In this document: positions 2,656 to 22,174 of the stretch, piece by piece | How positions within the stretch are numbered: the first letter of the stretch is position 1 | Layout of the letters: each line of letters starts with the position of its first letter | Assembly: GCA_021513695.1 (NCBI GenBank) | Contig: CP084166.1 | Location: forward strand, 416,001-480,000 | Source of the DNA: Candidatus Heimdallarchaeum aukensis | GTDB taxonomy: Archaea > Asgardarchaeota > Heimdallarchaeia > Heimdallarchaeales > Heimdallarchaeaceae | Length of the DNA stretch: 64,000 nucleotides | Direction of reading: 5' to 3' | Made by a program: the position numbers and the translations under genes | The notes under the pieces: generated by a model | Told to the model about the DNA's origin: nothing | Seen by the model: only the letters and a program-made list of their open reading frames with translations | Database searches by the model: none

Positions 2656-5600
2656 TTAGTTCATGCTTTCTTTTAGATAAACCCAAGTATAACCCATTTG
2701 TTTTTGGACTATTTCTTCTGGTTTTCCTTCTGAGATTATGTACCCTCCTAGCTCTCCTCCTTCTAGACCTAAATCTATAACATAGTCTGCCTGTTTAATT
2801 AAATTCATTTCGTGATCAATTAGAACCACACTGTGTCCTTTATTTGCTAATCTATGAAGAATTTCAATAAGTTTTTCTAAATCAAAAAAGTGTAATCCTT
2901 GAGAAGGTTCATCTAGGATGTAAATACTATTTCCATAGGTTCTTTTAGATAGTTCTCTTACAATCTTTAATCTTTCAGCTTCTCCACCACTTATTGTTGT
3001 TGTTGGTTGTCCCATTTTCAAATAACCTAAACCTGCTTCAACAGCTAATTTTAATGGAGCACTTATTTTTTCTAGATCCCTAAATAACTCATATGCTTCT
3101 TCAATAGTCATCTCAAGAATATCAGAGATAGATTTTTGTTTGTACTTTACAGCTAGAACTTTTTTGTTATACCTTTTCCCCTTACAAATAGGACAAGTTA
3201 ACCATACATCAGATAAGAAAAGTAATTCTACCTTCTTTTGCCCTAATCCTTTACATTCTGGGCATTGTCCTTTTTTTACATTAAAACTAAAATGAGCAGA
3301 GCTCATTCCTCTGTTTCTTGATTCAGGTAGTTCAGCATAAAACTTTCTTATCTCGTCAAAAACTCCAAGATAAGTTGCTGGAGTTGAACGAACAGATTTA
3401 CTCATTGCAGATTGATCTACAGCAATAACTTTTTTGATATCTTCAAAACCTTTAATTTCTTTATGTTTTCCTGCTTCTATCTTCTTTTTAGAAATTTTTT
3501 TCTCTAAAGCTTTTTGTAAAGTATCTATAACCAAAGAAGATTTACCCGCACCTGATACTCCAGAAACAGCAGTAATAATTCCCTTTCCAAACTTTGCTGT
3601 AATATTTTTAAGATTATTTTCTTGTGCTCCTACTAAAGTTATATTTTCTGAAGTTTTTCTTCTTTTAGTAGGCGTTTTTATTTTTCTCTTGCCATAAATA
3701 TAGCTACCAGTAAGAGAAGATTCGCTTTTAAGAACCTCATTGGTTGAACCAAAGTTAATTATTTCTCCTCCTTCTTCTCCTCCCCTTGGTCCTAACTCAA
3801 TTATATAATCAGACTCTTTAATTATTGTATCGTCATGTTCTACTACTATTACGTGATTGCCATTTTCTTTTAATTTCTTCATGGTGTCTAATAGCCTGTT
3901 AATGTCTCTTGGATGTAAACCAATAGTGGGTTCGTCTAAGCAATAAGTTACCCCTATTAATCCACTTCCTATTTGAGAAGCTAAGCGTATTCTTTGTGCT
4001 TCTCCATTGGATAATGTACTTGCTCTTCGATCAAGAGTTAAATATTCTAACCCTACATCTACTAAATATTGAGCTCTTTTCTTTAATTCGGAAAGGATTC
4101 GCTCTGCTATTTTCGACCTTCTTTTATCTAATATTATATTATTCAGAAATACAAGAAAGTCTTTAACTGAATATTTTGTCAAATCTGTAATTGATTTGTT
4201 ATTAATTGTAATAGCTAAAACTTCTGGTTTAAGTTTTTCTCCCTTACAGTCGGGGCAAAGATACTCTGAATAATATTGGTTCATTTTTTCTTTATATTTA
4301 AGTGACCAAGTCGAATCTGTTTCAGATTTCATCCAATCATCCCAACGAGGAATTAATCCTTCCCAAGGTTTTTCTCTAATATACTCTGATACAGATTTAC
4401 GACTTTCTTGACGATAAACTATTTCTACTATTTCGCCATCTGAACCATAAAATAAAGCATGTAGTTGTTGAGGAGTAAAATCTTTTAGAGGAGTAGAGAG
4501 AGTGAAACCAAAGTGTTTTCCTACTGATTCTAACATACTTCGTCTCCAAGAGTTAGGATTACTCATTCTTTGTGCAGTATAAGGACCAATTGCTCCTTCA
4601 ATTATTGATTTATTCCAATCTGTAACTATCTTTCTAATATCAAATTTTCTGATCATTCCCAATCCTGTACAAGTTGGGCAAGCTCCTGAATAGTGATTAA
4701 AACTAAATAACCTTGGGTGAATCTCTTCTGGGACTTCAATTCCATGCTCTAAACATTCAGCATTGAATGAATACCTTTTTCCTTTTTTATCTGTAGAATA
4801 GACTTCTATTCTCCCTTTTCCAAGTTCTCTAGCTATTTCTAATGAATCAACAAATCTCGTATCTTCAACTTTTGATAAATCTATTCTATCAATCACAACT
4901 GAAAGTGTTTTAACATTATCAACACTAAACTCTTCATCTAAATGTAATAGTTTCTCATTTAGTAAAATCCTTGTATATCCTTCTTTCTTTAGTTCTTTTA
5001 CAATTTTAGATATATCTACTTGCTCTCCATTTAATACTGAAGCAGCAAGGTATATTTTCTTATCTTTGAACTCTTTTCTAATCAATTTTGCTATTTCTGT
5101 TTCTGTCCTTTGTTTTAATTCAATAGAACATTTAGGACAATGAGGAATACCTACTTTTGCAAAAAGAAGACGAAGATAATCATAAATTTCAGTAGTTGTG
5201 GCAACAGTGGAACGAGGATTATGTGAAATTGAATGTTGATCTATTGCAATTGAAGGAGTTAAGCCTACTATTTCTTCTACTTCTGTCCTTTCTGCCCGAT
5301 TTAGAAACTGTCTAGCATAACTGCTCAAACTTTCAATAAATCTTCTTTGCCCTTCAGCAAATAGTGTATCAATAACTAAACTACTTTTTCCACTACCAGA
5401 AACTCCAGTAACAACAACAAGATTATTTTTTGGAATAGTAAGATCAAGATTTTTTAGATTGTTCTTTTTTGCTCCTTTTACATAAAGAAAACTGCTTGGA
5501 TCTAATTCTTTATCTGATGTGGAAATAGAATTTTTACTTACTGTTTGCTCTTTTTCTAATTCTCTCTTTTCTCCTTCTAAAACCTTTTTTAGAGCTTGAC

Positions 5601-8445
5601 CTGTATATGACTCTTTAATTTTCACAATTTCTTCGGGAGTACCAAAACCAACTAAATATCCTCCCTTTTCTTCTCCTCCTTCAGGACCTAAATCAATGAT
5701 ATAATCTGCAGTCTTAATTACATCTAACTGATGCTCTATTACAAGAACGGTGTTTCCTTTATCTACTAATTCTTGTAAAACTTTGATTAGTTTCTTGATA
5801 TCTTCAAAACTTAAACCTGTAGTTGGTTCATCTAAGATATACAGAGTCTTACCAGTAGCTCTTTTAGCTAATTCTCTACTCAATTTTATTCTTTGCGCTT
5901 CTCCTCCAGAGAGAGTAGTAGAAGACTGACCTAATTTTATATAGTCTAAACCTACAGCTTCAAGAGTTTTGAGTATTCTAACAATTTTAGGTTGGTTCTC
6001 AAAAACATTTAATGCTTCACTTACAGTCAAGTTAAGTATATCTGCGATAGAATATCCTTTGTATTTAACTTTAAGTGTTTCATCATCATATCTGTTTCCT
6101 TTACAAATTTCACACTCTACCTCAACATCAGGTAAAAGAGACATCTCTATAGTGTTAAAACCTTTTCCTTGACAAGCTTCACATCTACCAGGGCTGTTAT
6201 TAAAACTAAATCTAGTTTTTGTATATCCTCTCAGTTTAGCAGTAGGAAGAGAAGCAAATAAGTCTCTAATAGGGTCAAGCATCTTTGTGTAAGTTGCAGG
6301 ATTTGAACGAGTAGTTCTACCTATAGGTGATTGGTCAATAACAACTACTTTATCGATATTCTCGACTCCTTTCAAAGTCTTGAATTTTCCTGCTTTCTGT
6401 TTTCCATGATGTAACTTATTTACTAAAGCGGGATAAAGGGTATCAGAAACTAAACTACTTTTACCGCTTCCAGAAACTCCAGTTACGCAAACAAATGTTC
6501 CTAAAGGTATCTTTACATCTATATTCTTTAGGTTATTGTGCTGAGCTCCTTTTAATTCAAGAAAAATATTGCTCTTTCTTCTCTTTTTAGGAACTGAAAT
6601 TGAGTCAAGGTTTAGTAAATATCTAGCTGTAAAAGAGCGTTTAGCGTCTTTTTCACTTATATCTCTAGGGTTTTTAGCAAAAAGTAATTCTCCGCCTAAA
6701 CTACCTGCTCGAGGTCCTAAATCTATTAAAACATCTGCACTCTGTAAAGTGTCTTCGTCATGTTCAACAACAATAACTGTATTCCCACCATCACGTAGAG
6801 TCTTTAAAGAAGAAAGAAGCTTTTCATTATCTCTATTTGCTAAACCTATGCTAGGTTCATCTAGAACATAATTAACTCCTTGAAGTTTAGCTCCTATTTG
6901 TGTTGCTAATCTAGTTCTTTGAGCTTCTCCGCCACTTAAATCAACAGCACTTCTATCTAAAGTGAGATAATGAAGACCCACCTCGATTAAAAAATATAAT
7001 CTGCTTATGATTTCCCTAAGAAGGGGTTTTGCTATCTTTTCTTCCTCTGGAGATAACTTTAAACTGTTAAAGAAATTGTAACATTCTTCTATAGACATTT
7101 GATTAAGTTCAGCAATATTTTTTCCATGGAAAAGTACAGATAGACTTTCATTCTTTAACCTTAGCCCTTTACAATCAGGACAAGTTTGAAGTTCCATATA
7201 TTGTTCTAAACGTTCTTTCATGCTTTTAGAAGAAGTTCTGTAATAACCCTCCATTGTTGCAGGAATAAAACCTTTCCATTTTACATCTGAAGTTCCCCGG
7301 GCTTTCCAGACACTATCTCTTGCTCCCCATTTCCAATTAATGGTATACTCTTTACTTCCAGTACCGTACATCAAGATTTGTTTGTGTTCTTCAGGCAAGT
7401 CCTTCCAAGGAATAGAAATATCAATACCTAACTGTTTAGCAATCTGTGCAATAGAATTTTTGCTCAATCCAGTATAAGTAAAGTGATCTCCACTTTTCGT
7501 CTGTAAAGCTATTGCATGTTCTAATAAAGGATTATCAGGATTAGTAACAAGTTTGTCGGGAACAATTTGAGGAAGCTTACCTAAACCTTTACATCTTGGA
7601 CAAGCTCCAACAGAAGAATTATAAGAAAAATCTCGAGGGTGAAATTCATTAACAGATAAACCACATTGAGGACAAACAAGCTTATTAGAAAAAATCTTTT
7701 TTTCCTTTTCTCCAATAATCTTTACTTTCCCATCAGCGAGATCTAAGCAAAGATCTACACTATCACGGATACTAGCTTCATTTTTCCTCAAACATTTATT
7801 TCTATCTACAACTATTTCAATATCATGGGCGACATATCTTTCCAATTTTGGAAACTTTTCATCCAGATTAATCTCTTCTCCATCAATGATTAAACGAGTA
7901 AAACCTTCTTCTTTCCATTTTGCTAGTTCTTTCCTGTACTCACCTTTTCTTTTTTTAAACATTGGTGCAACAATCTTGACTTTTTGTCCTTCAAAAGAAG
8001 CGAATATTTGATCTATTATCTGATCAGAAGGTTGTGCATCTATTTTAATATTACATATTGGACAATGAGGAACACCTACTCTAGCAAAAAGAACACGCAA
8101 GTAATCATATATTTCTGTTAAAGTTCCAACAGTACTTCGGGGATTCCTAGAAATGGTTTTCTGGTCAATAGAAATGGTAGGTCTTAAACCTTCAATATGT
8201 TCAACATCTGGACGATCAAAGTTGCCAATAAATTGTCTAGCATAAGCAGATAGAGTTTCCATATATCTTCTCTGAGCTTCTGAAAAAATAGTATTGAAAG
8301 CTAGTGAACTCTTCCCACTACCTGAAACGCCAGAAATTACCACTAGTTTATCATGTGGAATAGAAATAGTTATGTCTTTCAAGTTATTTTCTTTAGCTCT
8401 AATAATTTTAATACTGTCAGTACTAGAAGTCATATGATTATTCAC
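2656..8445 (-). CDS. Tandem-duplicated UvrA-like ABC ATPase: two complete UvrA units fused, four nucleotide-binding modules
   Basis: 1929-aa ORF, about twice the length of a normal UvrA (about 940 aa). Unit 1 starts IKIIRAKENNLKDITISIPHDKLVVISGVSGSGKSSLAFNTIFSEAQRRY. Unit 2 restarts near nt 5490 with LYVKGAKKNNLKNLDLTIPKNNLVVVTGVSGSGKSSLVIDTLFAEGQRRF. There are four Walker A sites (GVSGSGKSS x3, GVSGAGKSS) and four signature motifs (LSGGEAQR x2, LSNGEAQR, ISGGEAER). There are four Walker B sites (YVLDEPSIGL, YILDEPTTGL, YCLDEPTIGL, YILDEPSQGL). CxxC zinc modules occur in each unit. Confidence 0.85.
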   Translation of the reverse strand: MNNHMTSSTDSIKIIRAKENNLKDITISIPHDKLVVISGVSGSGKSSLAFNTIFSEAQRRYMETLSAYARQFIGNFDRPDVEHIEGLRPTISIDQKTISRNPRSTVGTLTEIYDYLRVLFARVGVPHCPICNIKIDAQPSDQIIDQIFASFEGQKVKIVAPMFKKRKGEYRKELAKWKEEGFTRLIIDGEEINLDEKFPKLERYVAHDIEIVVDRNKCLRKNEASIRDSVDLCLDLADGKVKIIGEKEKKIFSNKLVCPQCGLSVNEFHPRDFSYNSSVGACPRCKGLGKLPQIVPDKLVTNPDNPLLEHAIALQTKSGDHFTYTGLSKNSIAQIAKQLGIDISIPWKDLPEEHKQILMYGTGSKEYTINWKWGARDSVWKARGTSDVKWKGFIPATMEGYYRTSSKSMKERLEQYMELQTCPDCKGLRLKNESLSVLFHGKNIAELNQMSIEECYNFFNSLKLSPEEEKIAKPLLREIISRLYFLIEVGLHYLTLDRSAVDLSGGEAQRTRLATQIGAKLQGVNYVLDEPSIGLANRDNEKLLSSLKTLRDGGNTVIVVEHDEDTLQSADVLIDLGPRAGSLGGELLFAKNPRDISEKDAKRSFTARYLLNLDSISVPKKRRKSNIFLELKGAQHNNLKNIDVKIPLGTFVCVTGVSGSGKSSLVSDTLYPALVNKLHHGKQKAGKFKTLKGVENIDKVVVIDQSPIGRTTRSNPATYTKMLDPIRDLFASLPTAKLRGYTKTRFSFNNSPGRCEACQGKGFNTIEMSLLPDVEVECEICKGNRYDDETLKVKYKGYSIADILNLTVSEALNVFENQPKIVRILKTLEAVGLDYIKLGQSSTTLSGGEAQRIKLSRELAKRATGKTLYILDEPTTGLSFEDIKKLIKVLQELVDKGNTVLVIEHQLDVIKTADYIIDLGPEGGEEKGGYLVGFGTPEEIVKIKESYTGQALKKVLEGEKRELEKEQTVSKNSISTSDKELDPSSFLYVKGAKKNNLKNLDLTIPKNNLVVVTGVSGSGKSSLVIDTLFAEGQRRFIESLSSYARQFLNRAERTEVEEIVGLTPSIAIDQHSISHNPRSTVATTTEIYDYLRLLFAKVGIPHCPKCSIELKQRTETEIAKLIRKEFKDKKIYLAASVLNGEQVDISKIVKELKKEGYTRILLNEKLLHLDEEFSVDNVKTLSVVIDRIDLSKVEDTRFVDSLEIARELGKGRIEVYSTDKKGKRYSFNAECLEHGIEVPEEIHPRLFSFNHYSGACPTCTGLGMIRKFDIRKIVTDWNKSIIEGAIGPYTAQRMSNPNSWRRSMLESVGKHFGFTLSTPLKDFTPQQLHALFYGSDGEIVEIVYRQESRKSVSEYIREKPWEGLIPRWDDWMKSETDSTWSLKYKEKMNQYYSEYLCPDCKGEKLKPEVLAITINNKSITDLTKYSVKDFLVFLNNIILDKRRSKIAERILSELKKRAQYLVDVGLEYLTLDRRASTLSNGEAQRIRLASQIGSGLIGVTYCLDEPTIGLHPRDINRLLDTMKKLKENGNHVIVVEHDDTIIKESDYIIELGPRGGEEGGEIINFGSTNEVLKSESSLTGSYIYGKRKIKTPTKRRKTSENITLVGAQENNLKNITAKFGKGIITAVSGVSGAGKSSLVIDTLQKALEKKISKKKIEAGKHKEIKGFEDIKKVIAVDQSAMSKSVRSTPATYLGVFDEIRKFYAELPESRNRGMSSAHFSFNVKKGQCPECKGLGQKKVELLFLSDVWLTCPICKGKRYNKKVLAVKYKQKSISDILEMTIEEAYELFRDLEKISAPLKLAVEAGLGYLKMGQPTTTISGGEAERLKIVRELSKRTYGNSIYILDEPSQGLHFFDLEKLIEILHRLANKGHSVVLIDHEMNLIKQADYVIDLGLEGGELGGYIISEGKPEEIVQKQMGYTWVYLKESMN

Positions 8446-12043: not shown

Positions 12044-12529
12044 TTGTTTTCCATGTCTTACCAAACTTTTGCTGAGAAGTGCGAACCTGCTGTTCCAAAG
12101 TATGTACATTACATTATTGCAGGTCTTGCATGGTTAGGAGTAGGAATAATGTTATCTAATTTTGCTATTCAATGGTTAATCGTTGCAGAGGTACCTCTTG
12201 TTTGGATTTATGGTTTAATTGGAACAATTGCTGGTTTTATCATCTACTACTTTGGTTTTTCGCATATTGCCAAAAAGAATGTTAAAAGAATAGTTGAAAA
12301 AAGGCATAAATTCTGTGTTTTTGCTTTTATTTCTTGGAAATCATACTTGACAATACTTGTTATGGTTGCAATGGGGATAGGATTGAGATTGTCTCCTATA
12401 CCTAAACACTATCTAGCCGTCTTATACATTGGTTTAGGAATAGGTTTAGGTCTGTCTAGTTTTGTTTATTTTGGAAAAACTATTCTTCATTTCAGAAATA
12501 ACCAACCAGATCAAATAACAAACAATTAG
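12044..12529 (+). CDS. Hypothetical membrane protein
   Basis: 161 aa with a TTG start and four predicted TM helices. No recognised motif. Confidence 0.4.
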   Translation: MFSMSYQTFAEKCEPAVPKYVHYIIAGLAWLGVGIMLSNFAIQWLIVAEVPLVWIYGLIGTIAGFIIYYFGFSHIAKKNVKRIVEKRHKFCVFAFISWKSYLTILVMVAMGIGLRLSPIPKHYLAVLYIGLGIGLGLSSFVYFGKTILHFRNNQPDQITNN

Positions 12530-13582: not shown

Positions 13583-14020
13583 TTATATATCGAAGGATTC
13601 TCCTTTAACTTGTTTAATATGGTGTAAATCGTGTTTCCATAGACCAAATAAATCTGCAGCTTTTTCCTCAAGATTCTTTTCTATAAGTAATTTATAGTTT
13701 TTAATTAATTCTTCTCTTTTTTCTTTAAACATGTCTACTACTTCATTCAGACTTTTTTCTTTATATTGTTCTAGTTGTTTATCGTTCCATTCGTCAAGCT
13801 TTGAACCTGAATATTCTTCAGACCATACAACTTCTTTACCCTCAAATACATCTTTTACAATTCTCAAAATTTCAATGTCCCAGACTAATAAGTGTGCAAT
13901 AAGTTCTTTCTTTCCCCAACCGTTTGATAAACTAAAATCTTCGGAAAGATCTAACACAATTTCAGTTGTTTTTTCAAATTTGTTTATATGCTCAGTTGGT
14001 TTAATTTTTTCTTGAGTCAT
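13583..14020 (-). CDS. DinB/ClbS-like four-helix-bundle protein (tentative)
   Basis: 145 aa. His-containing helices LIAHLLVWDIEIL and WKHDLHHIKQ are present. This is a weak family call. Confidence 0.35.
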   Translation of the reverse strand: MTQEKIKPTEHINKFEKTTEIVLDLSEDFSLSNGWGKKELIAHLLVWDIEILRIVKDVFEGKEVVWSEEYSGSKLDEWNDKQLEQYKEKSLNEVVDMFKEKREELIKNYKLLIEKNLEEKAADLFGLWKHDLHHIKQVKGESFDI

Positions 14021-14191
14021 AAAAACAATGTTAAAATTGTATTTTTATCTTTTTCTTTAGGTATTTAAACTGTTATTTTCTCTTATTTTCAATTGATTCA
14101 TTGGTTGTTTTTTTCTCACTTTATTCTTGTAAAGTAGTATACTTTACTTTTCTAAATAGTAAAGTATTCATAAAAGAATGATAATTGTCAT

Positions 14192-15262
14192 TTGGTGAAA
14201 AAAATGTTCACAAAAACAAAAATTATTGGTTTGGGAATACTTCTTTCAATGCTGGTAAGCTCTTTAGCTATATCAGCTGAAAGTCAAGGGTTGCAATATT
14301 CAGAACAAAATAAGCTCGTAACAATAAGCTATGAGGATCTTACACTCATGGTTAATGCTGGAGGTCAAGTACCTAAGTTTCATATCATTCAGGATGGTGG
14401 AATAGAGTTCCAAGTAATGTTCAAGCTTCTAGCCGAATATTATGACGAAAACGGAGATGGAGCTTTTCAATATGATGAACTAAATATAGCCCAAACGGGA
14501 CAGACAGGTCCTCCTACTGCTAGAACTAACATTTTAGCTCTACCAAGTGTCATCTGGTCATTCAGCGGTTTTGAAGCAGAATACGAAGAAGGAACAGAAA
14601 ATATTGTAGCTATACACTTCAGTTTTGTCAGTGATCAAATACTTATTCCATTTTACGCTGATTTTTCTATGGAAATAAAGGCCCATTTCTATCTAGATAA
14701 CAAGACCATTGATGGATATGAGATCATTGGCGGAAGAGAACTCAAATTTGATATAATCATGAACAATTGGCCATGGGAAAGAGATGATACTTACCTTGCT
14801 TTAAGATTTGACATTTCCCCTCAAAATGATGTTGCAGAAGTAAAAGATGCTGAAGGAAAACCTATTGACACAAAAACTAACTCTACAGGTGCTGAACACA
14901 AAGTCAATAATCAAAATAAAATGAAAAATTCTTTTGAGTTAGGGAATGCTACAGATAAAGGATTCTTTGCTTACTCTAATACGGCCAACTATTCCTATCA
15001 AAATGAATACCAACAAGGAACAGTAAATTGCTCTTATGCTACAAACGGAGATAACACAATTCAAACTTATTTAAGTTTCGAGCATTTCGATGAAGAAGTT
15101 GTTTATGATCCTTCACTAGGAATCGTTTCTGATACTGAAGAAGATACAGAAGGAGATACTGACGAAGATACAAGTGGTCTAGGAAATATTGAAATATTGA
15201 CAATCAGCGTATTTTCGATATCAGCCATTACTGCTGTAGCTATCATAAGAAAGAAGAAATAA
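14192..15262 (+). CDS. Secreted, C-terminally membrane-anchored surface protein (hypothetical)
   Basis: 356 aa. It has an N-terminal signal-like segment (IIGLGILLSMLVSSLAISAES), an acidic linker DTEEDTEGDTDEDTSG, and a C-terminal TM plus basic tail (LTISVFSISAITAVAIIRKKK). Confidence 0.5.
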   Translation: MVKKMFTKTKIIGLGILLSMLVSSLAISAESQGLQYSEQNKLVTISYEDLTLMVNAGGQVPKFHIIQDGGIEFQVMFKLLAEYYDENGDGAFQYDELNIAQTGQTGPPTARTNILALPSVIWSFSGFEAEYEEGTENIVAIHFSFVSDQILIPFYADFSMEIKAHFYLDNKTIDGYEIIGGRELKFDIIMNNWPWERDDTYLALRFDISPQNDVAEVKDAEGKPIDTKTNSTGAEHKVNNQNKMKNSFELGNATDKGFFAYSNTANYSYQNEYQQGTVNCSYATNGDNTIQTYLSFEHFDEEVVYDPSLGIVSDTEEDTEGDTDEDTSGLGNIEILTISVFSISAITAVAIIRKKK

Positions 15263-15267
15263 TATCC

Positions 15268-15301
15268 TTTTTTTCTTTTTTTCTTTTTTTTTCTTTTTTT
15301 T
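15268..15301. terminator. Long oligo-T tract between convergent genes
   Basis: The sequence tttttttctttttttctttttttttcttttttttg starts 6 nt after the stop at 15262. It sits between convergent ORFs, with the next ORF ending at 15395. Confidence 0.45.
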
Positions 15302-15394
15302 GATTTTAATCAAAAATCTTTAGAAAATAAGACCATTCAAAACTTAATTTTGTATTATATTGAAAAAAAAAGGATTTTAGTTTAACCACTAAAA

Positions 15395-18067
15395 TTAATA
15401 TTTCTTTCCACAGATATCAATTTCTTCAAAAGTTTCCTTAACTTTATTTTTCTTTTGTTTTGTTCTGAAGATAATTTCAAATAAAACAATTGAAAAAATG
15501 AAAATCATCCAAACTATACTTTTACTGATAATTTCTTTTCTTCTAGTAATACCTATGTTTGAATTAGGATCTAATGGGTCAAAATCATTCATTACTTCTT
15601 CATAATCAGTATATGAATCTCCATCTGTATCAGGATCGTTGGGATCAGTATTATAAAATTTTACTTCTTCAAAATCGTCCAATCCATCAAAGTCACTATC
15701 TATGCGTAAAGGATTAGTATGGTAAATAAATAATTCTTCATAATCATCTAGTAAGTCACCATCTGTATCACGATTTAGGGGACTAGTATTGTAATTATTT
15801 ACTTCTTCTCCGTCTTTTAATCCATCATTATCAGAATCACTATCATTGGGGTCAGTATCGTACATGTAAATTTCAAGATTATCAGACAAACCATCCAAAT
15901 CTGAATCTTTTAATGTAGGATTTGTTCCATAAACAAATACTTCTACTCCATCATCTATTCCATCATTATCTGAATCATCATTTGTAGGATCTGTTCCATA
16001 AGCGTATATTTCATCACCATCTAATAATCCATCAAAGTCAGTATCATTATTCCTTGGATCAGTATTGTTTTCAAATTCGTGAATATTATATAATTCATCA
16101 TTATCAAAGTCAACATAGGCATCAATTGGATTAGCAACATCTAAACCATAGTAATATTCCCAGTAATTTGTCATTCCATCGCTGTCTAAATCTCCATCAG
16201 CATCGCTTGGATCATCAGGATCTAATCCTACACTAACTTCCCAGTAATCAGGCATTTTATCGTTATCACTATCTCTTACTAGTTTTATGATAAAAGCATC
16301 AATATATCCTTCCAAAGTGGAATTTAAAGGGCTTTTTAAAAGAAGATCATTACTCTCTGTACTCCCTACTATGTAGATAGAACCATCACTATCCACTGCT
16401 ATATCTCTACCTACATCTTCTTCTCTTCCACCAAAATATGTGCTAAAAACTAAATTTGTTCCACTTCTGTTTAACATAGAAACAAAAATATCGGAATAAT
16501 AAGTAGGATTTCTTTCTTCAATTGCATTTTTAATCGGAAAATCATTGCTCCATGTTCCACCTGTTAAATAGACGTTTTGATCATTATCTACCGTTATTGA
16601 CAAACAAGTATCATTTGATGAACCACCTAAAAATGTACTATAGATTATATTATCAGCTGTTGAACTTATTTTTGTTAAAAATATGTTAGAATATCCATTT
16701 AGTGTGTCATCAAAGGCATTTTTTGTTGGAAAGTCAGTACTATTTGTAACACCAGTGATATATACATAACCTTCACTATCAATAGTTATTCCTCTGGCAT
16801 AATCATTATACTTTCCCCCTAAATAAGTGCTAAAGATTAACCCATTTCCTGTAGAGTTAATATAGGATAAATAAACATCAAAAAAGCTTCCACCACCATA
16901 AGTAGAATTAAAAGCATTTACAGTCGGAAAATCATCACTTCTTGTAGATCCAGTAATGAAAATAGAACCATTAGAGAAAACTTTACCTTTAGCAAAGTAT
17001 TCAGCATCACTTCCCCCTATTATTGTGGTGAAAATAGGTTCAAGAGTTTCTCCATCAAGTTTAGTAACAAAAGCATCATAATCATCATCTGAAATATTTC
17101 CAAAAGCAAAGTTGTTGAATAAAGAAGTGCTCATAGTATCTCCAAAAATGTATATATTTCCATCATTTCCTATTTCTATCTTGCGTCCATAATCAAAAAT
17201 ATCCCCGCTTAAATAAGAACTAAAATCTACTAAATAAGGATCAATAATCAATTTTTTAGCTGTATCATATTGTTCAATATTAAAAATATAACAGTTGTCA
17301 TCAAGAGTAAAATAAGCGGGGATAATTTTTCCTTCTTAAAAAACTTTTAAGTTTCTATCATTAAAAATTCTATATTCTGTATTTCCGATTCTTGAGATTC
17401 CAACTATATTAGTTTCATCTTCTTGTTTTAAGTAAAACTTTGAATCTGATGATAGTTGAACCTTAATAACTGAAGGATCAGCGTTTGGTTCAACAATAAA
17501 TTCGTATTTCAGAAATGAACCTGTAAAATAGTATCTTAAAGATATTCCGGGGTATATATCTTCATATATTATTTCTTGATAACAGCTTATTTGAGTAATT
17601 GCTTTATCTTTGTAAAAAAAGTTAGAATAGTAATTTGCTAATGCTTTTGCCTGTGGTACAACGATATTTGAATCAGGAAAAGAGACATTAATTAAGAAAA
17701 ATTTAGTATTTTCTTCTTTATTCGGTTTAAGATTCTGAATAAAGTAGACCTTAGATTCTCCAAAGTAAACATTTGTTAAAGGAGATTGAGCATAATAAAA
17801 AACTGTCTTGTCAAATATATGCCCTTTATTTTTCATAAAAAAGTATTTAGAATTGTAATCACTGACATAGTTCTCTTCAATTTCGCCGGAAACACTGTAA
17901 AAATTAATTTTTGCTTTATTTTGCTGTTGTGAATATTTTATGCTGTAAGAGCCAACTAAAGTGTTATTTTTGACATAAAATCCAGATAAACTGCTCACAC
18001 TTACAAGAAAGATTAAAAACAAACAAACAATAAATGAAACATTTCCTTTGCTTTGATTTTCATTCAT
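15395..18067 (-). pseudogene. Surface protein gene (signal peptide, N-terminal domain, SBBP-type beta-propeller repeats, TSP3-like Ca-binding repeats, TM anchor) interrupted by one in-frame TAA at 17336-17338
   Basis: The ORFs 17336..18067 and 15395..17251 are in the same frame, as (17335-17251) is 84 nt, or 28 codons. I translated the gap by hand as ...NLKVF*EGKIIPAYFTLDDNCYIFNIEQYDTAKKLIIDPYLV, which is open apart from the single TAA. The downstream part has only a TTG pseudo-start and no signal peptide, while the upstream part carries the signal peptide (VSFIVCLFLIFLVSVSSLSG). SBBP-like repeats are present (YLGGKYNDYARGITIDSEGYVYITGVTNSTDFPTKNAF). So are TSP3-like repeats (DSDNDGIDDGVE, DTDGDLLDDYEE). 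Confidence 0.6.
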
Positions 18068-18350
18068 TTTTCTAAATATTTTAGGTTGAAAAATATTATA
18101 TAAATATTATCAAATGATTTTTGGATAGTTTTTTATTTAAAGTTTAAAATAAAGCTTGAATAGATTTTAGAATAAAAAGAAAAATTTTGCCAATTATATC
18201 TTTTTTGTAAGATTTAATCTAAAAAAGATAAATTCAAATTATAAGAAATAAGACAGATAATATTAGGCTAATTATCAGTTTTTCTATTAAATTCAAAATA
18301 GTGTTCTAGAAATCTAAAAAAATAGAATGAGGAAAACAGTAAAAAGCTAT

Positions 18351-18458
18351 AGTACTTCCGCAATAAGTTGACTGATTTCTATAGGTTAAAATTATAGGAG
18401 TTCATACTATCATTGGTGTGTTCTCAATTCATACTTTTTGAGATAATTCGGAAGTACT
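18351..18458. mobile_element. 108-bp MITE-like element, copy 1
   Basis: The element is bounded by perfect 10-bp terminal inverted repeats AGTACTTCCG...CGGAAGTACT, or 11 bp if the flanking T/A is included. It is intergenic and non-coding. Its reverse complement recurs at 28436..28543 with 2 mismatches by my reading. Flanking AAGCTA appears on both sides. Confidence 0.55.
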
Positions 18459-18504
18459 AAAGCTAATAACAATTTTTTTAAGTATAATTATTAAATAAAA
18501 CACA

Positions 18505-19326
18505 ATGGACAATTCTAATGATTCAATCAAGGAAATGAAACTTTTTTCAAATCAAACAAGAAGGGATTTGTTAAAACTTCTTGGAGAATCAGGAGGATTG
18601 TCTTTTACTAACATTAAAGAAGAATTGAGACTTACAGATGGAAGATTATATTTCCATCTAAAGAAATTAGAAGGCTATATTGAGAAAGATACACAAAATA
18701 ATTACAAATTAACTTTAGATGGTAAGAAAATCTATGATTCTTTGTTTTTTAGTCATATTAAAGAACAGAAAAAATTTGAAGAAGATGTTTCATCGAAATC
18801 TCTTAACAAAATCTTTCCAGAAGACATTGTTTATTATTTAATTGGAACAAAAACGAGAAGTATGATAGAATTAAATATGTTATTGTTAATTTTATGTTGG
18901 TTTTTTGCAGTTACAGACAGTTACTTTAGTTCTATTGAAACAATAGTTTTGGGGGGAGCTATAGTCAATTTTGTCATTAACCTTATCCATTGGTATTTTT
19001 ACTGTTTACTCATTTATATAATATTAAAAATTGCAAAGAAAGGAATAGACTTTGTAGAATTAACTATTGTTACAATAATAGGAATTGCCCCATATTTCCT
19101 CTATTTACTAATAAAAGGGATTTTGCAATTATTGAATATAGAAATAATTGGTTTGATAAATATTGTTCTGGTAATTTTATTTGTTATTTGTAAGATATGG
19201 TCTTCACTAATAATAGCACAAGGATTAACAGTCGTCTCAAAGATCCATCCATCACAATCTTTACTAGCTGTAATTTCATTAACAATTATTGATTATTTGT
19301 ATTTGTTTATTACTTTATCAATGTAA
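18505..19326 (+). CDS. Winged-helix (ArsR/MarR-like) DNA-binding domain fused to a multi-pass membrane domain
   Basis: 273 aa. The N-terminus (LFSNQTRRDLLKLLGESGGLSFTNIKEELRLTDGRLYFHLKKLEGYIEK) fits a wHTH pattern. The C-terminal half has about 5 hydrophobic helices. Confidence 0.5.
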   Translation: MDNSNDSIKEMKLFSNQTRRDLLKLLGESGGLSFTNIKEELRLTDGRLYFHLKKLEGYIEKDTQNNYKLTLDGKKIYDSLFFSHIKEQKKFEEDVSSKSLNKIFPEDIVYYLIGTKTRSMIELNMLLLILCWFFAVTDSYFSSIETIVLGGAIVNFVINLIHWYFYCLLIYIILKIAKKGIDFVELTIVTIIGIAPYFLYLLIKGILQLLNIEIIGLINIVLVILFVICKIWSSLIIAQGLTVVSKIHPSQSLLAVISLTIIDYLYLFITLSM

Positions 19327-19401
19327 TGATAGAACTTTAGAAAAATAAATAAGAAGAATAATAAAAAAGAAAGAGAAAAAATAAATAGAGAGCTGAAAAA
19401 C

Positions 19402-20070
19402 ATGGAAAAAAGAAATATACTGTCTCTGTTTCTACTAGTTGTAATAACTAGTTCTATAGTCGTCTCTGGGATGCTTACAATTAGAAATTATGAAGAAATA
19501 GTCGAAGATTTACATAACACTAATATTTTTCCTACCGAACCAATAGATAATGGAGATGACGATATAAAAACAGGAATATTAGAATTGTTTTATCTCGGCT
19601 CTGTTTCTGAAAATCAAGTTTTAAAAAGTATGACCAGTTATGGTCCCCCGAATGCGACAGAAACTTTGCAGAATGTTTGGATAAATGTTACAAAAATTGA
19701 ACTGGTAGGAAATGATTCAAGTTTAGTTAAGTTGTTTGAAGACCATGTCCAGCTTGATATAAAAAAGGCAGAAGAAGAAACAATATTCTTGTTTTCATTT
19801 AACATCACAGAAGGAACATACCCTGCAATTAAAATATTCTATGAAAACACTTTGATAGTAAAAACAACAGAAGGAACGGTTAAAACATATATAATTCAAG
19901 GATCGAACTTTCTAGTTATACCTTTCATGCAAGATAAGTACTCCACTAACCAATCAAATCTAGAAATATCGAAGAATGTAAAAAAATCTACCTACTTAGA
20001 TTTCAACGTGAATTTAATTTCATTTACTCAGTCAGCAGTAATAAATATACAAGCATTCTTAAGCCTTTAA
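19402..20070 (+). CDS. Hypothetical secreted or anchored protein (DUF4382-like beta-sandwich, tentative)
   Basis: 222 aa with an N-terminal TM/signal segment (ILSLFLLVVITSSIVVSGML). The remainder is beta-rich. The family guess is weak. Confidence 0.35.
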   Translation: MEKRNILSLFLLVVITSSIVVSGMLTIRNYEEIVEDLHNTNIFPTEPIDNGDDDIKTGILELFYLGSVSENQVLKSMTSYGPPNATETLQNVWINVTKIELVGNDSSLVKLFEDHVQLDIKKAEEETIFLFSFNITEGTYPAIKIFYENTLIVKTTEGTVKTYIIQGSNFLVIPFMQDKYSTNQSNLEISKNVKKSTYLDFNVNLISFTQSAVINIQAFLSL

Positions 20071-20241
20071 GTAAAAAAAATTATTTTGCAGAGTCTATTT
20101 ATTTTTAGATATTTACAGTTTTAATTCTCACAGATTCACTTCATTATTTTTAAGAGATTATATCATATAAATAATTAATAGAAAATTTATAGAAGATACT
20201 AAGATAGTTTTTTATATCTTCTTTAATTTGAATGTATAATA

Positions 20242-21156
20242 ATGAAAATTGGTTTTTCTATTCCAATATCAGAAAATAATAAAAATCAGTTACATTATGT
20301 TAAAAATCTTAACGATTTAGGAATAGAACAATTTTGGATAGGAGATAATCCTCCTGTAAACAACGCTTTTCTCACTATTGAACATATTTTAAGTAGAATA
20401 GAAAAAATTACTTTAGGAACAGGAATTACTTCTCCCTTTTATTATTCTAAACAGACTTTAGTAGGCACAGTAGAGTATTTCATAAAAAATTATGGTAAAA
20501 GATTCATTTTGGGGTTGGGTTTTGGAAAAAAGAAGTCTTTTTTTGACAGTAATGAGAGATTAGATTTTAGAAAATTTCAATCTTACACTCATGAATTAGT
20601 AGAAACAGTTAGACACAGATTACAGAAAAACAATTTGCAAGATTCTTTTTCTTATGCTATAGGAGGTTTAGGTAATAGTATATCAAAATTTGCTATTCTC
20701 AATGCTGACATATTCTTGGTGAATAGTGCTTCTAAATATGATCTCAAGCGAATAAATAAGATATTCAACAGTTTTGATGATAAAAAGAAAAGCCAAGTGT
20801 TTCTTTATTGTATGATGGAAATAAGAGAGAAGAAAGAAAACATTTCTCTCAAATTATGGAATATAGTTAAAGACATAGCTCGCAACTCATCTCTAAATAT
20901 ATTGGAAGAGCATAACTACTCTCAAAGTATGATAGAAAAAATAAAGCAATTACCTCCAGAATACATGTTTAAAATTCCTGAAGGAGAAGTAGTTCATATA
21001 GTCAATGATTTTGCTTTGGTTGGTAAAATCGATGAATTAGCGGAAAAGGTTTCTAATTTAATGAAAACTTCTAAAATAATCGATGGCTTAATTTTTGGGT
21101 GGACCAACGAAATTTATGACTACAAAAAAATAGCTGATTTTCTAGAATTGCTTTGA
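20242..21156 (+). CDS. Luciferase-like (LLM) / F420-dependent oxidoreductase family protein (tentative)
   Basis: 304 aa. The start MKIGFSIP and the stretch LGIEQFWIGDNP are typical of LLM TIM-barrel proteins. This is a weak by-eye assignment. Confidence 0.4.
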   Translation: MKIGFSIPISENNKNQLHYVKNLNDLGIEQFWIGDNPPVNNAFLTIEHILSRIEKITLGTGITSPFYYSKQTLVGTVEYFIKNYGKRFILGLGFGKKKSFFDSNERLDFRKFQSYTHELVETVRHRLQKNNLQDSFSYAIGGLGNSISKFAILNADIFLVNSASKYDLKRINKIFNSFDDKKKSQVFLYCMMEIREKKENISLKLWNIVKDIARNSSLNILEEHNYSQSMIEKIKQLPPEYMFKIPEGEVVHIVNDFALVGKIDELAEKVSNLMKTSKIIDGLIFGWTNEIYDYKKIADFLELL

Positions 21157-21211
21157 ATTACGCCAATTTATTTGAATATATTTAAATATTTAATTATTAA
21201 GCGAAAAATCT

Positions 21212-22174
21212 ATGAGCTCTTCAGATTTTGCTGTAGAAACCAATAGGTTAACAAAAGATTATGGATCATTAAGGGCAGTAAATGAAATTGATCTATCTAT
21301 TGAAAAATCAGAAATTTTTGGTTTGCTTGGTCCAAACGGTGCAGGAAAAACTACTACCATCAGGCTTCTTTCTGGAATGCTAACACCTACTTTTGGAAAA
21401 GCTAAAGTTTTAGGTATGGATTCTGTGGAAAAATCCCTCCAAATCAGAGAAAAAACAGGATTACTGACTGAAACCCCTTCGATTTATGACAGATTAACTG
21501 TTAGAGAAAACCTTACTTTCTTTGGTAGAATATATGGAGTTAAAACTGATTCCTTGAGAAAGAACATTGATAAATTGTTGGATATTTTTGATTTAGAGGA
21601 GAAAATAGATACAAAGGCAGGTACCTTATCAAAGGGTATGCGACAGAAAGTAGCAATAGCAAGAACACTTATTCATGATCCTGAACTCATATTTCTTGAT
21701 GAACCTACAGCTTCTCTTGCTCCTGAATCAGCTAAAGTTGTTAGAGATCTAATCCTTAATTTAGCAAAGGAGAGTAAAAAAACTTTCTTTATTGCAACAC
21801 ACAACCTCTATGAAGCTGAAATACTTTGTGATAGAGTAGCAATTATAAACAGAGGAAAAATTCTTGCAGTAGGAAAGCCTAAAGAACTCAAAGAAATGAT
21901 GAAGGGAGAAACATATACGATTATTAAATTCCAAGAATGGAACAAGGAAATAGAAAACTTTCTTGAAGCACATAATTACAAGATAAGTAATCTTGCCAAA
22001 GAAGAAAGAAAAATACACATAAAATTAAAGGACATTGAAAAAGAAACACCAGCTTTAATTAAAAAATTAATTGAGAATAATTACAACATTGTAGAAGTTT
22101 TCCACGAGAGACCTTCTTTAGAAAAGATCTATCTTGAACTAATAGAAAAAGAATCAAATGGAGGATTGAATTAG
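21212..22174 (+). CDS. ABC transporter ATP-binding protein (ABC-2 exporter type)
   Basis: 320 aa. It has Walker A GPNGAGKTTT, the signature LSKGMRQKVAIAR, Walker B IFLDEPTASLAP and the H-loop ATHNL. Its stop abuts the start of the permease gene at 22175. Confidence 0.9.
   Translation: MSSSDFAVETNRLTKDYGSLRAVNEIDLSIEKSEIFGLLGPNGAGKTTTIRLLSGMLTPTFGKAKVLGMDSVEKSLQIREKTGLLTETPSIYDRLTVRENLTFFGRIYGVKTDSLRKNIDKLLDIFDLEEKIDTKAGTLSKGMRQKVAIARTLIHDPELIFLDEPTASLAPESAKVVRDLILNLAKESKKTFFIATHNLYEAEILCDRVAIINRGKILAVGKPKELKEMMKGETYTIIKFQEWNKEIENFLEAHNYKISNLAKEERKIHIKLKDIEKETPALIKKLIENNYNIVEVFHERPSLEKIYLELIEKESNGGLN

Follow-up and report, generated by a model that had tools for sequence, protein, structure and literature searches.

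Truncated alleles of internalin A (inlA) in Listeria monocytogenes are strain-specific premature stops in an anchored surface protein. Proteins that combine DUF7948 (PF25778) with SBBP beta-propeller repeats (PF06739), often together with TSP3_bac repeats (PF18884), are widespread in Asgard archaea and bacteria. To our knowledge, no function has been established experimentally for this DUF7948-SBBP family. We analyzed a gene of the family that lies on the minus strand at positions 15395-18067 of a 64,000-nucleotide stretch (hereafter the window) from Candidatus Heimdallarchaeum aukensis (contig CP084166.1, positions 416,001 to 480,000). In this organism, represented by strain PM71 (closed genome, 3.08 Mbp; PMC8813620), the gene is interrupted by an in-frame TAA. 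Our data indicate that it is very probably a nascent pseudogene, or loss-of-function allele, that arose through a recent nonsense mutation.

The locus resembles the truncated inlA alleles in several respects. In both cases, a single-nucleotide nonsense change affects a protein with a signal peptide and a C-terminal anchor, a truncated exported product is predicted, and other strains carry the intact gene. Unlike inlA, the gene described here belongs to an Asgard archaeon and to a different protein family, and it is represented by one mutant genome, so that neither recurrence nor selection is evidenced. Compared to other DUF7948 + SBBP proteins, the domain order is the same and the characteristic [FYW]-Q and LIIDP motifs are present. 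The window gene departs from these proteins in that its frame is broken within DUF7948 and in that it has two propeller blades fewer than the nearest orthologs. In the orthologs and most of the listed homologs of the DUF7948-SBBP(-TSP3) family the polypeptide is uninterrupted, whereas here a TAA at codon 244 interrupts DUF7948. We therefore regard the window gene as a disrupted member of this family.

Translation of the minus strand across 15395-18067 yielded 891 codons with one internal stop (TAA, codon 244, 17336-17338) and a terminal TAA. Besides codon 244, this frame translation revealed no second stop and no frameshift. Two open reading frames (ORFs) make up the interval: 17336..18067 (243 aa, beginning with ATG) and 15395..17251 (618 aa, for which the list gives a TTG start). 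The preliminary description of this DNA had placed both in a common frame, separated by 84 nt that are open save for the TAA. The ORF list and our translation confirmed this: the gap at 17252..17335 is open, and the TAA at 17336-17338 is the sole stop between the two ORFs. By our own base-composition estimate, chance would leave a gap of 28 codons open in roughly 10% of cases in DNA of ~30% GC, which makes the gap by itself weak evidence for one gene. The decisive observations, from the domain and ortholog comparisons, are that DUF7948 is cut by the stop, that its score increases when the pieces are joined, and that the orthologs are single ORFs.

We compared the pieces with Pfam, separately and joined. 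The upstream piece matched DUF7948 (214 profile positions; gathering cutoff = 27) over profile positions 1-157 with 84.9 bits, and the first 33 residues past the stop matched profile positions 184-213. Upon joining, a single DUF7948 match covered profile positions 1-213 (residues 77-277), and the score rose from 84.9 to 99.4 bits. The joined sequence also scored 104.9 bits for SBBP and 68.4 bits for TSP3_bac. In the post-stop piece, the SBBP match (107.7 bits vs a cutoff of 20.5) begins directly after the LIIDP motif. The DUF7948, SBBP and TSP3_bac models all exceeded their gathering thresholds. An AlphaFold2 model of residues 1-458 had a mean predicted local distance difference test score of 76, with values of ~90 around residues 240-270. 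In this model the DUF7948 region is beta-rich, and the stop precedes its last three strands (251-256, 259-264 and 273-276). A Foldseek search of the model against the PDB returned only generic beta-propellers (CylK, DDB1; TM-scores ≤0.3) and was uninformative on DUF7948.

We assessed the position of the stop in the best 120 of 1707 homologs. By our reading of the table, about 100 of these 120 combine PF25778 with a following PF06739 in a single polypeptide. The motif xIDP is present in 99 of the 120, and in 95 of those 99 it is preceded ~30-36 residues upstream by the [FYW]-Q motif; the residue count at the stop column in the distant homologs was anchored on xIDP. In the near-orthologs, L273-I274-I275-D276-P277 is invariant, and LIIDP closes DUF7948. 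All five near-orthologs (P0122, P0123, P0124, P0125 and P0126) have Gln at position 244. Those found as 90%-identity clusters (P0122, P0123, P0125 and P0126) are 86-96% identical to the conceptual protein. A split at the same point was seen neither in the homologs listed among the best 120 of 1707 nor in the near-orthologs.

Intact alleles were found in a sister species and in a conspecific strain. A scan of GTDB species representatives located the syntenic gene in Candidatus H. endolithica PR6 (CP084167.1, L003 4001-7057), where it is one 1018-aa ORF with the same neighbours. The conspecific allele was reached via a 90% cluster look-up and an exact-protein contig look-up, which showed that P0123 is encoded on a contig (L004) of Joint Genome Institute (JGI) metagenome 3300033141. 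In the flanks of the L004 gene, the proteins of five genes share 98-100% identity with those of the window, and the DNA of one flank shares 99.65%; L004 thus represents an environmental strain conspecific with PM71. The L004 gene is an intact 1018-aa ORF, and its aligned codons 151-300 are identical to the window save for the stop codon. The window reads ...AAA GTT TTT TAA GAA GGA..., L004 reads ...GTT TTT CAA GAA GGA... and H. endolithica reads ...AAA GTT TTT CAA GAG GGA.... Gln codons in the window are mostly CAA (350 vs 82 CAG). Together, this preference and the CAA of the orthologs place the stop one C-to-T transition from a conserved Gln codon.

The preliminary description had read the two ORFs as a single gene of about 890 codons, from a variable surface-protein family, and it had pointed to orthologs as a source of counter-evidence if these proved to be two separate genes. 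The split DUF7948 and the single intact ORFs in L004 and H. endolithica support the proposal. The alignments show that the two ORFs are parts of one ancestral gene, which the conspecific strain and the sister species retain intact, with CAA in place of the stop. Metagenome contigs scanned for the exact DNA pattern with NNN at the stop codon gave no match, a protein-based scan of the same contig collection gave no confirmed loci, and we found no literature on the JGI sample or accession that holds the intact allele. Features of the disrupted gene are listed in Table 1.

Table 1. Features of the disrupted surface-protein gene of strain PM71, in window coordinates.
Feature	Coordinates	Strand	Basis
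Whole disrupted gene	15395..18067	-	One continuous frame, one internal stop; 890 aa with Gln at codon 244
Upstream fragment, 243 codons, UJG41188.1	17339..18067	-	About three quarters of DUF7948, preceded by the N-terminal hydrophobic segment
N-terminal hydrophobic segment, residues 10-29, putative signal peptide or signal anchor	17981..18040	-	Kyte-Doolittle; AlphaFold helix 10-22
DUF7948, residues 77-277, interrupted by the stop	17237..17839	-	PF25778 positions 1-213 on joined sequence
Premature TAA stop, codon 244, from CAA (Gln) by one C-to-T transition	17336..17338	-	Ortholog codon comparison
Post-stop part, 646 sense codons + terminal TAA, severed from the signal peptide	15395..17335	-	Pfam
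TTG taken as start of the 618-aa ORF; internal Leu273 codon of LIIDP	17249..17251	-	Ortholog alignment
SBBP beta-propeller blades, residues ~282-597	16277..17224	-	PF06739 matches; ortholog alignment
Junction of PM71-specific in-frame 128-codon deletion (two SBBP blades)	16706..16753	-	Alignment gap of 128 aa
TSP3_bac Asp-rich repeats, residues ~598-825	15593..16276	-	PF18884, 73.1 bits vs cutoff 25
C-terminal transmembrane anchor, residues 851-867, then 23-residue Lys-rich basic tail	15467..15517	-	Hydropathy >1.8 at 845-869

Read from its N-terminus, an intact product would comprise a signal peptide, DUF7948, an SBBP beta-propeller, TSP3 repeats, a transmembrane segment and a short Lys-rich tail, the layout of a type I membrane surface protein. 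A Kyte-Doolittle scan of the conceptual 890-aa protein (19-residue windows above 1.8) gave two hydrophobic segments only, at residues ~6-33 and ~845-869. The C-terminal anchor is conserved in P0123, P0124 and P0126. The TSP3 repeats presumably bind calcium, as judged from their family. We counted five propeller blades by eye, compared to seven in the orthologs. The SBBP repeats are shared with the Leptospira LipL53-family lipoproteins (NCBIfam NF047494); the match to that family reached 47.8 bits vs a cutoff of 400, and we rejected membership.

The distribution of these elements over the two pieces agreed with the preliminary description, in which the signal peptide was confined to the upstream piece and the downstream piece alone had the propeller, the TSP3 repeats and the transmembrane anchor. 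The hydropathy scan fits the first and last of these assignments, and the SBBP and TSP3_bac matches all lie past the stop. The downstream piece was also described as lacking an ATG; it is listed from TTG, and the first in-frame ATG past the stop is codon 312.

These observations suggest the following course of events. A C-to-T transition would have turned the conserved Gln244 codon CAA into an ochre stop TAA in PM71. Translation would then begin at ATG 18067 and end at codon 244, which predicts an exported fragment of 243 residues whose DUF7948 is incomplete. With 646 of the 890 residues lost, the cell would no longer make the propeller, the TSP3 repeats and the membrane anchor as a surface protein. 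Any internally initiated product would lack a signal peptide and would have no route to the surface. Since the next gene downstream (14192..15262, +) is encoded on the opposite strand, no polar effects on other genes are expected. The gene thus combines intact orthologs whose sense codon is one mutational step away, a stop that cuts DUF7948 and removes a large part of the protein, and a downstream part with no credible start or targeting signal of its own. Two other mechanisms were considered and rejected. Slipped-strand phase variation does not apply, as the change is a substitution and not a change in repeat length. Frameshifting would not help, for although the C-to-T change creates a run of six T, the downstream part is already in the frame of the upstream part.

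Both ORFs are annotated as coding sequences in GenBank, and they could now be separate working genes, with the downstream one starting at TTG 17251 or at ATG 17134. We consider such a functional split extremely improbable. GGAG is present 6 nt before ATG 17134, but it merely belongs to the Gly-Asp codons GGA GAT. The TTG encodes the conserved Leu of LIIDP inside DUF7948, and neither a GGAGG- nor a GGTG-like motif occurs in the 40 nt upstream of it. The downstream product would lack a signal peptide despite its extracellular-type propeller, TSP3 repeats and C-terminal transmembrane segment. The split would also run through what is modelled as a beta-domain, and the listed homologs, with none divided at this point, argue against it as well.

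We next polarised the differences between PM71 and L004 with H. endolithica as outgroup. On the PM71 branch we counted 20 synonymous changes and, with the nonsense change among them, 14 nonsynonymous ones; the L004 branch carried 18 synonymous and 19 nonsynonymous changes. Since nonsynonymous sites are about four times as numerous as synonymous sites, both branches look constrained. No excess of amino-acid change was observed on the PM71 branch in these counts. The nonsense mutation, a strain-specific C-to-T change, is very recent on these comparisons. A recent nonsense mutation had been one of three options in the preliminary description, and it is the one that the CAA of the conspecific strain and the sister species supports.

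The lack of excess amino-acid change, together with the absence of any further lesion in the rest of the gene, would also fit leaky or programmed read-through of the UAA. In this case, a near-cognate tRNA-Gln would be the likeliest decoder, and full-length wild-type protein would be made at a reduced level. Gln is a typical near-cognate insertion at UAA, and its insertion here would restore the ancestral residue. We nevertheless judge read-through very unlikely. Of the 46 window ORFs with 100 aa or more, 31 end in TAA, and seven of these share the TAA-G context of codon 244. The stop is not conserved, the five near-orthologs all having a sense codon for Gln. The 130 nt around and after the stop folded no better than shuffled sequences (z = 0.27). 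A tRNA scan of the window found no genes, and hence no local suppressor candidate. The regulated form of read-through, which the preliminary description had offered as its third option, shows none of its hallmarks: the stop is unconserved, most ORFs of the window end in TAA, and no RNA structure lies downstream. Low-level leakiness, in which partial UAA read-through by tRNA-Gln would make the allele an expression-lowering variant rather than a null, is a similarly slim prospect. We know of no documented case of spontaneous UAA read-through of this kind in an Asgard archaeon.

Selenocysteine and pyrrolysine are encoded by UGA and UAG, not UAA, and such cases involve dedicated machinery and conservation among orthologs. 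The stop-codon recoding described in Asgard archaea concerns these two amino acids (Sun et al. 2021, PMC9723677). The window gene is similar to such genes in that an in-frame stop lies within an otherwise continuous coding sequence. It differs in that the codon is UAA, the orthologs have CAA, and no downstream RNA element was detected. The ciliate nuclear code (table 6) reads TAA as Gln, which is also the ancestral residue at the stop in PM71. In contrast to codes of this type, TAA here serves as a true terminator at the frequency given above. Because the long table 11 ORFs leave little space between them in the window and mostly end in TAA, we rejected global recoding, including a reassignment of TAA to Gln. 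We regard the event as an ordinary, recent, strain-specific nonsense mutation and not as a recoding signal.

The second option of the preliminary description was a base-call error. The organism would then really have CAA, and the T would be a consensus artefact, caused for example by cytosine deamination or amplification. Such an artefact would account for a single C-to-T difference from the conspecific strain within an otherwise identical stretch. The DNA came from a low-biomass enrichment, and multiple displacement amplification (MDA) was used for the Nanopore library (PMC8813620). The assembly bases, though, derive from unamplified Illumina PE150 reads assembled with SPAdes, and the MDA-amplified Nanopore DNA was used for scaffolding only (PMC8813620). 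In addition, Logan assemblies of two runs (SRR15988954 and SRR15988958) both encode the exact 243-aa product that ends at the TAA. Over 3377 nt, the SRR15988954 assembly matches the window with 100% identity. With an Illumina-based assembly and the same TAA in two Logan run assemblies, a base-call error is unlikely, and we give the artefact as a whole very little weight. The two Logan assemblies rule out assembler error and are still compatible with polymorphism at the population level.

We also observed that the SRR15988958 assembly (L002 55-59 and 189-193; window ~18180-18320) differs from the window only in the lengths of two upstream intergenic T homopolymers. These differences may be platform errors or micro-heterogeneity of the enrichment.

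Several points weigh against the view that the PM71 gene is a nascent pseudogene. The downstream part is still perfectly open, which fits a very recent mutation and would also fit continued use. The two Logan runs have neighbouring accessions and presumably stem from the same study; they are assembler-independent and probably not sample-independent. The TAA is known from consensus assemblies, and the allele may be mixed within the enrichment. It may be polymorphic in the population, or it may have become fixed during laboratory enrichment. Finally, we infer the loss of the full-length protein from genomic DNA, so a loss-of-function allele is a predicted one.

The finding bears on public annotation. 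GenBank lists the upstream half as UJG41188.1 ('hypothetical protein K9W45_01685', 243 aa) and 618 aa of the post-stop part as an 'SBBP repeat-containing protein' (P0001). These entries are halves of one disrupted gene, and their separate listing is misleading. Both halves are now in UniRef, where they could mislead counts of domain architectures or pangenome counts, and the affected lineage serves in studies of eukaryogenesis. The only novelty is the listing of one gene as two proteins in public annotation. The result is of little practical value and has no bearing on an open question. Three strain-level changes coincide in this one gene: the nonsense mutation, a loss of blades by repeat recombination and locally raised divergence. 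They mark it as a fast-evolving cell-surface locus in Heimdallarchaeum and make it a reasonable place to examine for host-virus or attachment-related selection. The findings described below, namely the loss of blades, the mosaic divergence between the two species and the raised divergence within one of them, may outweigh the stop in biological interest, although this interest is still modest.

The blade loss is a 128-codon deletion relative to conspecific strain L004 and to H. endolithica (compare L003 5313-5700). To the left of the junction the DNA corresponds to the first blade copy, to the right of it to the third. The crossover lies inside a direct repeat of ~25 nt that is common to the blades, CTGACTTTCCAAC(A/T)AAAAATGC. 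The direct repeat at the junction points to a probable recombination or slippage event between repeats. A different gap of 78 aa was observed in the same region of P0122, a partial protein from a metagenome-assembled genome. This gap could be a real blade-number variant or an assembly artefact of repeat collapse.

Synonymous divergence (dS) from the H. endolithica locus (L003) was strongly mosaic across adjacent syntenic genes in window 13583-22174. A 145-aa gene with a weak DUF1706 match had a dS of 0.04 and the surface-protein gene one of 0.19; values in the remaining neighbours were 0.57-1.56. This mosaic suggests that recent recombination or gene flow may have taken place at the locus between the two co-occurring Heimdallarchaeum species. 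Divergence was also uneven within the species. Between PM71 and L004 (window 15395-16700; L004 3500-5161), the central and C-terminal parts of the gene had a dS of 0.13-0.28 and an omega of ~0.2, compared to a dS of 0-0.03 in the first 300 codons and the flanking genes. The raised within-species divergence fits allelic segments of a variable surface protein that may have been imported or recombined.

L004 also contains ~1.4 kb of extra DNA (L004 8090-9518; window ~12467-12501) that includes an ORF of 375 aa for which Pfam gave no match. This segment is absent from the window and represents a strain-specific insertion or deletion.

The neighbourhood includes further candidates for the envelope. 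The products of 14192-15262 (+) and 19402-20070 (+) have an N-terminal hydrophobic segment, and the first has a C-terminal one as well; a Pfam search with the 14192-15262 product gave no match. These hydrophobic segments place the disrupted gene in a small cluster of predicted envelope proteins. Adjoining the envelope genes, 18505-19326 encodes a fusion of a winged-helix helix-turn-helix domain and a membrane region whose weak resemblance to Yip1 falls short of the Pfam cutoff. Farther away, 2656-8445 (-) is a 1929-aa ORF (1925 aa in the Logan locus) with repeated UvrA_inter, UvrA_DNA-bind and ABC_tran Pfam matches. A length of 1929 aa is about twice that of a normal UvrA, and the product may be a duplicated or fused UvrA-like protein.

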